Below, piece by piece: positions 1-6,000 of a stretch of DNA of 64,000 nucleotides. The stretch is from contig JAQTQC010000001.1 of assembly GCA_028712505.1 (NCBI GenBank), positions 77,635 through 141,634 on the forward strand. The letters are read 5' to 3'. The DNA comes from Candidatus Omnitrophota bacterium (lineage in GTDB: Bacteria; Omnitrophota; Gorgyraeia; Gygaellales; Profunditerraquicolaceae). The position numbers are program-made. Within the stretch, counting starts at the first letter, position 1; each line of letters begins with the position of its first letter.

Positions 1-3000
1 GGATGTTTTATTTGTGTCCCGGTTTTCCTGGAGGAGATGATGAAAACCAAAAAGATTGTTTTGCTGGACCCCTTGACTTATCTAAACGGTGTTCCCGGGC
101 ATTACCATTTTGTCAGGGATTGGTCAGGGGCCAGACTTCCGGCAGATGTCTGCCTTGCTCCGCTGGACCTTATTTGCGCTGCGGCTTATCTGCGGCAGCA
201 TGGCCATGAAGTAAAAATAATTGAAGCCAGTATTAAGCATATCCATCATCCCGGATTGGTTAAGCTCATAAAACAAGAGTCCCCGGATTTCGTCCTGATC
301 CCGTCAGTCAATTTTGGCATTGAAAGCGACAAATATCTTTCTTCCTTAATAAGGCAATCTTTACCAAAAATTAAACTAATCTTTTCCGGGGCGTTGGTTA
401 CTTATAATCCCGGCAGCGTTTTATTTGATCGCAGTGCAGATTTTGCGGCGGTAGGAGAGCTAGAGATTCCCCTTTTAAACATCCTGCAGGAAGGCCGCGG
501 GGATAATGTTGCTTTCTTAAACGATAAGCAAGAAATAGTTATCGGAAAAAGAAGGCTTATTGATTTGGGTGAATTGCCCCTGCCAGCCCGGGATTTGATC
601 GATAATCAGGCCTATAATTATGCTATTTTTAACCGAAGGAATCCGATTACCACGATGACCTTGAGCCGGGGCTGCCCGCATAGTAAATGCGAGTTTTGTC
701 ATACTAATCTTTACACCCTAGGAGAAATAAGATTCAGGGATTTTGATTCAATCGCCGAAGAGCTCCGCGAAGTGGAATTTAAATATAAGATCGGTGAAAT
801 TTTTTTCCGGGATCAGGCTTTTACCGCTAACCGGGAGCTTGTTTTTAAGTTATGTGAGTTTTTAATTTCTCAAAAAACCGCTCTTTCCTGGAGGGCGGAA
901 ACCCGGGTGGACTTGGTGGATAAGGAAATGCTTGGCTTGATGCGCCGTGCAGGGTGTTATCAACTTTCTTTTGGATTTGAAAGTTGTGCGCAAAAATCTC
1001 TTGATGTAAACAATAAAAACATTACTCTTGCGCAGTCGAAAGAGGCATGCCGGCTGGCCGGGAAAGCGGGCATTGAGGTAGTAGGCTTGTTTTTATACGG
1101 AATGCCCGGCGATACGAAAGAGACCATGGACAGGCTTGTCAGGTTTGCTTTGGACCTGAAGGTGGATTACGCTAATTTTGAGGCAATTTATTTTATGCCT
1201 GGCTCTCCAGTTTATGAAAAAATGATTAAAAGCGGGAAGGCGGAATTTTTTCCAAAGGCGCTATTGAAGAAATATGTCCGTTGCGCTTACACAACATTCT
1301 ACTTGCGTCCTGAGTTTATCTCTAAAAATTTACTAAAAATGGTAAGAAACGGATCTTTTTTTCGGCTAGGGACAACCTTGAGGGTTCTCCGGGGAGCGTT
1401 TTTGTTCTTTTTGAGCCTGGGTTTTTCTCCCTTTGGGATGTTTAGCAAAAGGGAAAATCCGGACAAGGAGCATCAAGATGGCTGTTAAGAAAACGGTATA
1501 TTTTATTTTGAAGCTGGTTTTGGGAATAGTTATATTTTTCGGAATTCTGGAGATTTCCGCGCGTTTTATCTGGAAGTATAACGTTTCACTGCGGGAGGTG
1601 ATGCGTTCTGCGCAAGATCCAAAGATCATCTTTGAACTGAATCCCGGCACGAAGACTATTTTTACCGGTCAACACGTGAAAATTCCTCCAACTACCATCA
1701 AGGTTTCTTCAGCGGGGATAAGAGACCGTGAATATTCTTTTGCTAAGCCGGAGGGGGTATACCGGATTGTTATTTTAGGAGATTCGATTTCTTTCGGTTG
1801 GGGAGTAGAGATGGAACAAGCTTTTCCTGAGCTCCTGGAGGGCTTTCTGAATGAACGGGATCCCGGAAGGTACGAGGTTATCAATTTTTCAGTCCCCGGG
1901 TATAATTTTTCTCAGGAAGTGGCGACTTTGGAAAGAAAATGCCTTGGCTATCATCCGGATTTAGTTATTTTTTCGGTCTGCGGCAACGACTATCAGATAG
2001 CCTTCAATTATTTACATCCTATCCCAATCCTGGAAAAAATCCCGGGCATCTTTTATCAAAGCCGTCTCTTTAGCGGGGTTATCGGGGAGATCGTGTTTCG
2101 TAAGGACGTATCTTCTTCCCGGAAGATTTCCGAAGGCAGGGAGGAAATGAAGCGGGCGATTCTGGAATTAAAAAAGATTATTTCCGCAAACGACATCAAA
2201 GTTTTGTTTTATCATGGCGATAACAGGTATATCGAAGATTTGCTTGTTGATGCTGGTTTCGGAAGCCGCATTTTTACTTCCGCCCACGAAGTTTTTTCTG
2301 AGCCATGTTACTTGATAGAGAATGATAGGCATTTTAATTACCGCGGGCACAAGAGGGTAGCTGAAGATATCTACGGTTTTTTAAAGGATAGCGGTTATCT
2401 GAAGGCGGGGGAAAAGGCATTTAAAAAGTTTTGATTTATACCTTGGACGGAATCCGATGTTTGAGTTAAAAAGAATAGGGGAATTTTTTAGGAAGGCGGT
2501 AGTTTTGGCTAAGATTTATTCCCAAGTTATCCATTCCGTCAAAAGCGGCCTGCCTTATAAGCTTACCCTTGTAATTACTAACCAATGTAATTCCCGCTGT
2601 AAAACCTGTCTGGCCTGGAGAAACGAAACTATCATTCAGATGCAATTGGCAGACATCGAGGCTGCAGTTTTATCCTTTCCGGGAAAGCTGACCTGGCTGC
2701 ACCTTACGGGAGGGGAACCGTTTGTTCACCCGGAGATAAAAAAGATCCTTTCTTTTATCGGCTCCCTGAAATCTTCGATACTAGTTTCGATAAGCTCCAA
2801 TGGGCTGGAGGAAGAAAAGATTCGGGAGGTTTTATCTCCGTTAGCCGAAAATAACCGGAATAAGATATTTTATCTGAATCTTTCTCTGGACGGCGATGAA
2901 AAAGACCATGACTTTATAAGGGGAGTTAAGGGCAGCTTTACCAGGACTAAACATCTGATCAATTATTTTGATGGCCTATCAAGGCAGTATCCGCTTTTTT

Positions 3001-6000
3001 CGGTCGGCATAAACTCCACAATTTCCAAATTTAATATTGATAATTTTTATAATTTTTATAATAGGGCTTCCAGGGGTATTCGGCATATTAATGTAAATAT
3101 CGCCGATTTTTCCTCCTCTTGTTACCGGAACTCGGAGGATCTTTCCTTTGCTTCCGCTGACAAGGTCAAATTGAGGATTTTATTAGAGAAAATACTAAGA
3201 ACTTTGCCTTGGTATTCAGTAGAATTCTTTATAAAGAGATTATATTTAAAGTCTATGATCCGGGCAAGTTGCGGTATCGCTTGTCCGCTCCCCTGTTCTT
3301 CTTATTTGGACAGTGTTCTGCTTTTTTACAACGGTTCGTTAATTCCTTGTTTTAAATTAAGCCAGTGGAAAATAACCAGTAGATTTAATGATCTGGGAAA
3401 AAGATTTGATGAATGCAAATCTTTGGTGCAAGGGGTAGCAAAATCAGCTGAATGTCGCGATTCTTGCGTATTGTCCTGTGAAAAGTATTTGCATATTATC
3501 AACAGTATTGTTAAACTTAAAATAAACAAGATCCTCCCTTTATTTCTTTCTTAAAATGAATCAGCGTATACTTTTTAAATTAAAAGAAGTGCTCCAGAAG
3601 ATTCGGTCTTCTTTTATAGGGAGGCCTGCCCTCTGGGGTTTCTTGATCCTGGCGGTATTTTCCCTGCTGCTTTTTGTTCCATCTTCGTTCGATAACTTTT
3701 TTCATACCGGTCCGGATTGGGAGATTATTTATACCGGTGAGACTATTTTTCCCGCTGGACACTTTAATCCGCACGCCCTACTTACCTGTCTTAGTGCTAT
3801 TTTCAGCAAAGGGCTTACTCGCGCTTTAAACTGGGTTACTTGGATTATTGATTATCGCGTCTGGGGGCTTAATGCCCAGGGGTATTTTATAGAAAATACT
3901 TTCCTGCACATATTTAATTCTATCCTGGTTTTTTTATTCTTAAATCTTTTGTTCAAAGAGAAAGTTTTAAGCTTTGTATCCGCCCTGATTTTCTGTGTTC
4001 ATCCGATTAACGCCATTGTCCCGGTAGATGTCAGTGGACGGCCAGCCGGTCTCTGCGCTTTTTTCTATCTAGTGACGTTGATTTGTTTTTGTCGGTTCTT
4101 AAGGGATAAGAAACCGGTGTTTTATCTCCTTTCAATTGTTTCTGCTTTATGTGCTTTTTTAAGCAAAGAGACCGCTTTTTTGCTACCTTTTATAATTATT
4201 TTGACCGGAATATTTTTCTTTCGGATCCAGGGATCGTCCGGGAGTCCCTGTCCTAAAAGGCTTGGTGGTTTATGGATTTATCTGCCGTATTTCATTCTTG
4301 CTGTGCTGGTTCTTGTCTCGATAAACGATCAAATTATCGGAGGTTACGGACCCCCGGGACCGCACTCCTGGTGGTACAGGAATGCTTATAGTCATGCGGA
4401 GCATCGCTGGTTGCATATAGATTTCAGCCGGTTTATAGCTAAAGAATATTTCCTGCTTATTCCGCATATGCTGCAGGTTCTTTCGGTATATGTTTTTGAA
4501 AAATTTCTGCTTGTCCCTTGGGATACTTGTCGTTATCTGGCGCTCAAGACACAAGGGCAGGTTTTTTATACAGCGATATTTCTGGTTTTGATGGTTTTTG
4601 CCGCGGTAAAGGCGTTTTTAAGAAAAAATCTCAACACAGGAATATTTGTTTTCGGCGCAGCCTGGGTTTTTATCAATGCCCTGCCTATTTTGGGGACGTG
4701 TACGGACTTGAAAGATATCTTGGAGGGGATGAGACACCTGTATCTTATTTCGATAGGGTATAGTGTTATTTTAAGCTGGTTGTTGCTGGGGAATCGTTCC
4801 GATAACGGAAGATCCGGGAGGATCGGCATTGCTGGCTTGGTAATCTTGTGCCTGCTCATTGCGAATTTTGTCTGGCGGACGGTTGAATTTACCTCTTCCA
4901 TGAAATCGACCACGGTTGAGGTGAAGAAATTCGTCTCCCAGTTTAACAATTTTATTTCGAAGTTTCCCGAAAGAAGCAACATATTTTTTCTTACTAACCA
5001 GTATGATCCGGCGGTATGCGGTTTTATGCTTTCGGAGTATCCCCGGAAGATAAAAGACTCCAATTTTTATTACGCCCTGAGTGGAACGGATATATATTTG
5101 GGGAAGGCACAGACAATGGTCGGGCCGGGGATGTTTGTGGTTAACCGGGGTTTTAATCTTGCCGGTTTAAATTTGAATGAGACCGATTTTGTCTTTGGTT
5201 GGGATGATGAAGGCAATCTTTTGATAGAACTGAGTGGGCGGATCAAAGAGTTGGTTGGAACAGAGGAAGCAGCAGAGGGTAGAGATGGGCTTAGAACTGC
5301 CGGAGAGATTAAAAACTGGAAGACGGCGGAAGATATCGGGATAAAAGAAGGATCTGGGGGAAGCCGGATATTTATTTCTCCCAGCAGTATTAGAGATGCT
5401 CTTTCTGAATCCCGGAGGCGTCCCAAGATCGTCAGTCCCGAAACAGATATTTCTGCGGGTTCCGTGGAGAGAATCGTTATTGAAATGAAGATTCTTCCGC
5501 ATATGCCGCTGGAAAAAAGGTTTACTCCGGGAAGGATAGCAAAAAGCATGGAGGCCAAGAGGTTTTTCCCTATTGAAATATTTAAAAGTATTTTTATTTC
5601 CCCGTTTGATGATGAAATGATGTGGTTTAGCTGGATTTCCGAAGGGGAAAATGATTTTAGCAAACAGAAATCAATTCCAATTATCGTTCGGACCGACAAC
5701 GAATTTCATATCTATGAATTATTTCCCAGTAATAGTCTGGAGTGGTTGAAAAGCGGGAGGATAATCCGTTTTGGGATATCGCTGCAGATGTTTTTTAATT
5801 CGGAGATACAGATTCGGTCGATTAAATTTATCCATTCCGCAAACGGATCTTCGCCATGGCGAAAGAATAAAAAGTAATTTTGGTAATCCGATCGACCAAA
5901 CATTTTTCATCCTGTTTTATTCAATATCCCGAAAAAACAGGTCGTCAAGCTGAAGTTTTTAGCAACTAGTTTATTTCCTTAAGAGGCGACAAAAATGGTT

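Follow-up and report, generated by a model that had tools for sequence, protein, structure and literature searches.

AprD4 is a radical S-adenosylmethionine (rSAM) diol-dehydratase that acts on an aminoglycoside sugar in the C3′-deoxygenation of apramycin (PDB 6fd2). It is the best solved relative of the product of gene J, the first of four genes (J, K, L, and M) at positions 37 to 5877 of a 64,000-nucleotide (nt) stretch of DNA, here called the window, from Candidatus Omnitrophota bacterium (assembly GCA_028712505.1, contig JAQTQC010000001.1, positions 77,635 to 141,634 of the forward strand). For the other proteins treated here, the closest described systems are rSAM enzymes with a SPASM or twitch domain, such as CteB, SkfB, anSME, and BlsE (gene L); ArnT-, Pmt-, and TMTC-like glycosyltransferases of the GT-C fold (gene M); UbiU/UbiV and TrhP (the U32-family genes G, H, and N); and the ranthipeptide/SCIFF pairs CteA/CteB and PapA/PapB (a small peptide and its neighboring maturase, gene A).

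The Omnitrophota are uncultured bacteria whose cells are often ultra-small and which may live as predators or parasites. Every family found at the locus is known, and the conserved combination of these families is not described in the libraries and literature searched; the literature searched held no description of B12-binding rSAM genes together with U32 pairs, several GT-C genes, and an SGNH gene, nor of the invariant peptide reported below. We find that J to M are the end of a much longer operon, which on balance we take to encode a pathway for an rSAM-tailored envelope glycoconjugate that ends in periplasmic GT-C transfer.

Positions 37 to 5877 are the 3′ end of a conserved operon

The open reading frames (ORFs) of J, K, L, and M were found at the positions originally predicted:

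37..1488, plus strand: gene J, B12-binding (class B) rSAM protein, AprD4-like, with a noncanonical CX4CX2C motif
1478..2434, plus strand: gene K, SGNH/GDSL esterase with one N-terminal transmembrane (TM) anchor, probably facing the periplasm
2457..3554, plus strand: gene L, rSAM protein with a SPASM/twitch-type C-terminal Fe-S domain
3556..5877, plus strand: gene M, 773-amino-acid (aa) GT-C glycosyltransferase with a PMT_2/TMTC-like TM domain (about residues 29 to 450) and a C-terminal domain of about 320 aa

J and K overlap by 11 nt, L and M are separated by 1 nt, and K and L by 22 nt, so that the tight translational coupling proposed for all four genes holds for the overlap and the 1-nt junction and not for the K/L gap. 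The original prediction saw these genes as a small, self-contained module. Two loci of the same genome, L001 (from an 80-kb JGI contig) and L030 (21 kb), overlap the window at 2,764 of 2,765 nt and extend upstream of it (window position = L030 position minus 21240), and locus tags PHO40_00360 to 00410 with consecutive accessions place these genes on one contig of a Candidatus Omnitrophota metagenome-assembled genome. The gene set of J to M continues for 13 kb upstream of the window with conserved synteny, and the apparent smallness of the module is therefore an artifact of the window edge. Window positions 37 to 5877 are the last quarter of a conserved, Omnitrophota-restricted operon of 14 to 16 genes and about 19 to 21 kb. 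On L030 the order is gyrB, gyrA, glmS, rsmI, a 36-aa ORF, and genes A to M, followed in some lineages by N and O. Upstream of J, the operon contains the following genes:

L030: gene A, rSAM/SPASM maturase, CteB/PapB-like
L030: gene B, B12-rSAM protein, 519 aa, BchE/HpnJ-like
L030: gene C, secreted protein, 359 aa, without cysteine
L030: gene D, protein with 9 TM helices, 483 aa, GT-C-like
L030: gene E, PMT_2 GT-C protein, 514 aa, passing the PMT_2 threshold
L001:4562-5920: gene F, B12-rSAM protein, 452 aa, AprD4-like
L001:6074-8458: genes G and H, U32 pair, 46% identical to each other
L030: gene I, B12-rSAM protein, 494 aa, BchE/HpnJ-like

K and C are anchored N-terminally; D, E, and M are polytopic. 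Lineages at 72% and 56% identity keep the genes in the same order, E-F-G-H-I-J-K-L-M, and N follows M in the 72% lineage only. Gaps of 139 to 154 nt lie between B and C, between F and G, and between M and N.

A distant cluster and a natural loss tie the genes together

The strongest evidence that these genes form one functional system, with a polysaccharide-type role, comes from loci L036/L038 (GC content, 33%). Here, homologues of D, K, M, G, H, I, E, C, and B are clustered at 30 to 74% identity (49 to 50% between G/H and the U32 pair in L036) and are interleaved with further B12-rSAM genes, GT9, GT2, and GT4 glycosyltransferase genes, another PMT gene, and a Wzx-type Polysacc_synt flippase gene. 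The same loci hold a carbamoyltransferase gene (50% identical to the gene at 38447 of the window) and an SGNH-TPR gene (26% to that at 41423), both of which have their window counterparts at the head of a second, 3′ gene cluster. This mix indicates, from gene content, that the 5′ operon and the head of the 3′ cluster belong together.

A relative at 88 to 92% nucleotide identity, represented by two independent assemblies with the same flanking genes (L033/L034), has lost part of the operon. In both assemblies, with an identical pattern (positions 11700 to 21560), deletions have left only fragments of C, D, E, F, and M, and frameshifts interrupt J (two) and L (one); A, B, G, H, I, and K survive intact at 85 to 95% amino acid identity. 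J, L, and M have thus decayed jointly with the upstream GT-C genes, which ties them to one dispensable function.

Gene J is a class B rSAM protein by domain content

By domain content, J is a class B rSAM protein: it contains the B12-binding domain (PF02310; 49.4 bits, cutoff 32.1; residues 40 to 147) and the Radical_SAM domain (PF04055; 76.7 bits), and it may use cobalamin or transfer methyl groups. Its cluster-binding motif is CX4CX2C (SRGCPHSKCEFC) instead of the canonical CX3CX2C, and this spacing is kept in the J and F orthologues of three lineages; B, I, and the B12-rSAM protein encoded at 52286 have the canonical motif. The match to AprD4 (E = 9.5e-26) covers residues 176 to 400. Both proteins have an N-terminal B12-like domain, and the AprD4 motif, CX3CX3C, exceeds the canonical one by a single residue, as that of J and F does, the outer cysteines being spaced alike in both. 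J reaches 110.7 bits on the AprD4 model (NCBIfam NF033070), short of the equivalog cutoff of 500. The J locus also differs from the AprD4 system in having neither an AprD3-like reductase partner nor aminoglycoside genes. AprD4 itself is not known to need cobalamin.

The paralogues of J lie upstream. J and F are 51% identical (E = 1e-159); J shares about 28 to 30% identity with I and B, and 27% with the B12-rSAM protein encoded at 52286.

L, K, M, and the U32 proteins

Gene L matches only Radical_SAM in Pfam; the SPASM model (PF13186) gave no match at E ≤ 0.01, though relatives at 25 to 36% identity carry SPASM. The structural model of L (predicted local distance difference test score [pLDDT], 87) has a SPASM/twitch-type fold, with CteB (2e-13), SkfB (1e-11), and anSME (7e-10) among its Foldseek matches, which also include SuiB and BlsE. 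L shares with CteB, SkfB, anSME, and BlsE this fold (E = 2e-13 to 1e-9), the CX3CX2C motif (residues 44 to 51), and the CX12GX4C hairpin (C280-X12-G-X4-C298), and differs from them in its C terminus, where L has CX3CX3C; SPASM enzymes with two auxiliary clusters combine a CX9-15GX4C hairpin with a seven-cysteine CX2CX5CX3C pattern. Only four C-terminal cysteines (C280, C298, C333, and C337) are conserved in the L family, which fits one auxiliary cluster of a twitch-like kind. The genomic relatives of L stand in glycan and not in peptide contexts: in both contexts sampled, the nearest nonorthologous relatives adjoin GT2, nucleoside diphosphate (NDP)-sugar epimerase, and B12-rSAM genes.

HemN- or MiaB-type enzymes had been named in advance as the identity that would speak against the original prediction for the 5′ rSAM proteins. 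HemW, HemZ, and MiaB scores were marginal in comparison with those of the class B and SPASM families, and this identity was discarded.

Gene K is assigned to the SGNH esterases by Pfam Lipase_GDSL_2 (34.6 bits, barely over the cutoff) and Lipase_GDSL. It has a TM helix at residues 6 to 24, and LGDS103 (block I), GxND (block III), and H285 (block V) are kept in four orthologues; the Asp lies two, not three, residues ahead of the His.

Gene M has about 10 TM helices, with the TM domain modeled at a pLDDT of >85, and its 31 top fold matches in the PDB are all GT-C enzymes. The Pfam PMT_2 score is below threshold (20.3 bits; gathering cutoff, 26.1), and the orthologue P0002 has a precomputed PMT_2 match. 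Asp54, in the first extracytoplasmic loop, is near-invariant in an alignment with 40 PMT_2-type relatives. The model thus marks M as a predicted polytopic glycosyltransferase of the GT-C fold, in keeping with the GT-C-like transferase originally proposed, and by analogy M would use a polyprenyl-phosphate-linked sugar donor. The class calls made for the other genes (B12-rSAM, SGNH, and SPASM-type rSAM) likewise stand at the level of domain or fold. With ArnT-, Pmt-, and TMTC-like PMT-TPR proteins, M shares the fold, the number of TM helices, the first-loop Asp, and similarity over about residues 29 to 450, and thousands of PMT_2/TPR proteins match it in this domain only. Where its nearest PMT-TPR relatives carry a TPR domain, M has a unique, family-specific domain (residues 450 to 773) found in about seven proteins. 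These full-length relatives comprise four at 56 to 72% identity, all from Omnitrophota, and three at about 34 to 46%, one of them a fragment.

The U32 proteins N, G, and H share the Peptidase_U32 domain with UbiU/UbiV and TrhP, and G and H form an adjacent paralogous pair as in the known heterodimers. All of their NCBIfam matches lie far below the equivalog cutoffs (for N, 69 bits with UbiU, cutoff 440). In G and H, the match to the Pfam U32 model is limited to about 60 residues, and they differ from the described proteins in a cysteine-rich C terminus with a conserved CX4CX2CX2C motif and in having neither a quinone nor a tRNA context. With the similar pair of L036, they make up a distinct U32 subfamily tied to B12-rSAM and GT-C genes, and the co-occurrence of U32 pairs with these genes suggests a role for U32 proteins other than in quinone or RNA modification.

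A modified envelope glycoconjugate is the favored product

We consider it somewhat more probable than otherwise that the operon encodes an rSAM-tailored envelope glycoconjugate pathway ending in periplasmic GT-C transfer. Enzymes of two kinds point this way, J/F by their nearest relative, a sugar diol-dehydratase, and L by its relatives among glycosyltransferase and NDP-sugar genes. The glycan-type role in the original prediction agrees with these contexts and with the polysaccharide genes of L036/L038. From the gene content, folds, synteny, joint loss in a relative, and embedding among polysaccharide genes observed above, we infer the substrate, reactions, and acceptor as follows. The cytoplasmic Fe-S enzymes (F/J, B, I, L, and the U32 pairs) would tailor a nucleotide- or polyprenyl-phosphate-linked sugar; the lipid-linked product, once flipped through the membrane, would be passed by the GT-C enzymes E, M, and perhaps D to an acceptor at the periplasmic face; and the membrane-anchored esterase K and the secreted protein C may process it in the periplasm. 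The 3′ cluster probably also belongs to this system and was set apart from the operon by rearrangement.

Several observations weigh against this pathway. In the window lineage, the operon encodes neither a polyprenyl-phosphate sugar synthase nor a flippase. To our knowledge, the carbons that characterized U32 enzymes hydroxylate are all aromatic or heteroaromatic, and a sugar substrate is a poor fit for this. All rSAM family assignments lie far below the NCBIfam cutoffs, and the C-terminal domain of M is modeled at a pLDDT of <50, as its alignment lacks depth. The operon is headed by a peptide of the type known from peptides made on ribosomes and modified after translation (RiPPs) and its maturase, with B after this cassette in 10 of 21 loci, so that some of the operon's enzymes may act on a peptide. 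Finally, strand is no guide to the operon: all 51 ORFs taken as genes in the window are on the plus strand, any further ORF that reaches 150 aa (three are on the minus strand, and one is a longer alternative start for an SGNH gene) overlaps with these 51, and GC skew is positive in each 2-kb bin. With the whole window co-oriented, an operon inference from strand is uninformative.

For a single product, the locus supplies six rSAM proteins, as many as four Fe-S proteins of the U32 type, and three GT-C-like membrane proteins, and the 3′ cluster adds about eleven further rSAM proteins. This would point to heavy O2-independent carbon editing (deoxygenation, methylation, and hydroxylation) of an envelope glycoconjugate, a carbon-level chemistry that is barely explored beyond antibiotic pathways.

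A peptide-maturase cassette heads the operon

The small ORF ahead of gene A (L030:8209-8319; 36 aa) lies about 13 kb upstream of window position 1, no copy of it was found within the 64-kb window, and it is also found at L007:3649-3759 and in L008 to L027. The peptide is 27 to 47 aa long, with a lysine-rich N terminus and an invariant 12-residue C terminus, LSRYCRSGRVLW, and lies beside the maturase in all 21 loci, which are 19 species-level loci from a genome scan with A (nearly all from Omnitrophota) plus L007 and L008. It matched no NCBIfam model and nothing in the literature searched. The cassette, which the window genome itself carries, looks like an undescribed, phylum-wide RiPP-like cassette, to judge by these sequence features. 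Gene A has its closest solved counterpart in CteB (E = 2e-34) and scores below the equivalog level for PapB (225 bits; cutoff, 340), SCIFF (178; cutoff, 425), and QhpD (185; cutoff, 453). With CteA/CteB and PapA/PapB the cassette shares a small peptide beside an rSAM/SPASM protein with an N-terminal extension of about 100 aa, and it differs from them in a core with a single cysteine, the lysine-rich N terminus, and the invariant C terminus. This comparison concerns the upstream peptide and A only, not J to M.

Gene callers shorten A of the window genome to 442 aa. A frameshift was rejected as the cause of this apparent N-terminal truncation: the frame is intact (L030:8400-8603) and a canonical start codon is missing, with no ATG, GTG, or TTG at the corresponding L007 start (L007:3839). 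A conserved GGAGG followed after 6 nt by ATT suggests that A may use an AUU start codon. As conservation of the small ORF is confined to the C terminus, a cis-acting leader or ribosome-arrest peptide was also considered for it; this is unlikely, since ORF and maturase are on opposite strands and tail-to-tail in L021 and L027.

Given this cassette, the operon could instead serve the tailoring of a peptide. The core LSRYCRSGRVLW would be cross-linked by A, C-methylated and hydroxylated by the B12-rSAM proteins (J among them), L, and the U32 pairs, exported, and glycosylated or attached by PMT-like GT-C enzymes including M. The association of peptide and maturase in every locus, at the head of the operon in the window genome, argues for such a glyco-RiPP, as does the recurrence of B12-rSAM, GT-C, SGNH, and U32 genes beside the cassette in L010, L015, L016, L020, L023, and L026. 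Known U32 chemistry suits Tyr or Trp, and PMT and DPY19 GT-C enzymes act on peptides. However, in L036/L038 the gene set occurs amid plain polysaccharide genes and lacks peptide and maturase across 33 kb, and many cassette loci (e.g., L012, L019, and L025) lack the B12-rSAM, U32, GT-C, and SGNH genes within 10 kb; together, these loci make the cassette a frequent but separable neighbor. B, for its part, is conserved throughout the phylum (372 clusters at E ≤ 1e-100; the 120 listed are 61 to 87% identical). J/F resemble a sugar enzyme, the relatives of L are found among glycosyltransferases, and no GT-C-dependent RiPP appeared in the literature searched. We therefore regard peptide tailoring as unlikely. 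Slightly less probable still is the fullest version of it, in which the whole locus would be one pathway: the peptide would be thioether-linked, C-methylated, and hydroxylated anaerobically by U32 proteins (no oxygenases), and then glycosylated by GT-C enzymes on the periplasmic face or used there to anchor or prime a surface glycan. Such a pathway would be the first for a GT-C-dependent glyco-RiPP or for an Omnitrophota-specific peptide-derived cofactor or anchor.

The 3′ cluster shares enzyme classes with the operon, not specific paralogues

The second gene cluster of the window lies toward its 3′ end:

36963..45663, plus strand: head of the 3′ cluster, with a PP-loop (QueC-like) protein, a carbamoyltransferase, two SGNH-TPR proteins, an amine oxidase, and a TPR protein
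45699..62920, plus strand: rest of the 3′ cluster, with an ABC-2 permease, a 906-aa ABC ATPase, ten SPASM-type rSAM proteins, and one B12-rSAM protein

The stretch 40135 to 42742, listed originally as one SGNH gene, is of the SGNH class and holds two paralogous genes in tandem; their products are 42% identical, and a TPR insertion divides the SGNH domain of each. Positions 49229 to 62920 form an array of ten tandem SPASM-type rSAM paralogues (21 to 35% identity), most of which end in C-x3-C-[LV]-[LQ]-x-C; similarity among the ten spans the full length, mostly at E = 1e-20 to 1e-61. The GT2 domain reported here is present as an N-terminal fusion to one array member (50348 to 52270), and a B12-rSAM gene (52286 to 53827) is inserted in the array.

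These shared classes had led to the proposal that the 5′ genes mirror the 3′ ones, and we think it very improbable that they are an independent module, a duplicated and reduced copy of the 3′ chemistry serving a second glycan target. The same enzyme classes do occur at both ends, and L has both CX12GX4C and, as originally noted, the C-terminal CX3CX3C of the array members. The identities between the two sets, however, are of superfamily level: 27% for the B12-rSAM proteins, 26% over 72 aa for K and the SGNH-TPR proteins, which have only the GDS block in common, and about 30% over the rSAM core alone (about 200 aa; best E = 1e-13) for L and the array, so that full-length paralogy like that among array members is not seen. 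Many foreign SPASM proteins are at least as near to L as the array is, and no array member is among the 64 database relatives of L with E ≤ 1e-8. The closest paralogue of J, in turn, is F, and the 5′ set is larger than originally described and has its own conserved synteny. The mirror image thus holds for enzyme class and fails for specific paralogy.

The other option left by the original prediction, a split locus, gained support from the interleaved genes of L036/L038 and from L014, where homologues of 36963, 38447, and 40135 adjoin the peptide-maturase cassette in window order. More generally, homologues of 36963, 38447, 40135, 42836, or 44173 lie within 10 kb of the cassette in L013, L014, L017, and L026.

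Tailoring of a membrane lipid, in which a hopanoid, polyprenyl, or ether lipid would be methylated, cyclized, or hydroxylated by the rSAM proteins and receive a head-group sugar from the GT-C enzymes, is very doubtful: HpnJ, HpnR, and a ladderane-type lipid B12-rSAM protein are among the best NCBIfam similarities of B, I, and J, and a UbiA prenyltransferase gene adjoins the M homologue P0043, but these scores are far under the cutoffs and equaled by those of the nonlipid enzymes BchE, AprD4, and ApyD, none of the related loci showed a gene for squalene-hopene cyclase, Tes, or another enzyme of lipid synthesis, and GT2, GT4, GT9, and Wzx genes abound in the L036/L038 cluster. Tes and the enzymes of glycerol dialkyl glycerol tetraether and ladderane lipids were accordingly set aside as candidate identities, their matches being weak and below threshold.

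Genes downstream of M

Between M and the 3′ cluster, the window continues with the following features:

6028..7068, plus strand: gene N, U32-family protein, UbiU/TrhP-like (Peptidase_U32, 82.7 bits)
7098..7886, plus strand: gene O, 262-aa cysteine-rich protein, possible partner of N
7940..8078, plus strand: downstream boundary, with a promoter-like TTGACA-16-TATATT and a terminator/attenuator hairpin, ahead of pyrR

N follows M in the window and in L006, where it overlaps the end of M, and is absent from L003/L004. O begins 30 nt after N in the window and matched nothing in Pfam, NCBIfam, or the PDB; as no similarity to N was detectable either, O was rejected as a partner of N recognizable as a U32 protein from its sequence. 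An Rfam and tRNA scan of the window found three tRNAs only and nothing within positions 1 to 8000.

Positions 7940 to 8078 contain a near-consensus promoter with a TG element, followed by a 9-bp GC-rich hairpin and a T-run, and pyrR lies at 8193 to 8732. The region looks like a classical PyrR attenuation leader; it opens the pyr operon and marks the downstream end of the operon described here. The housekeeping block originally placed between the two modules was found, with pyr genes, carAB, and a V-ATPase. The last of these is a V/A-type ATPase operon (E, DUF2764, A, B, D, I, and c/K) at 20788 to 27823, directly after the pyrimidine genes.

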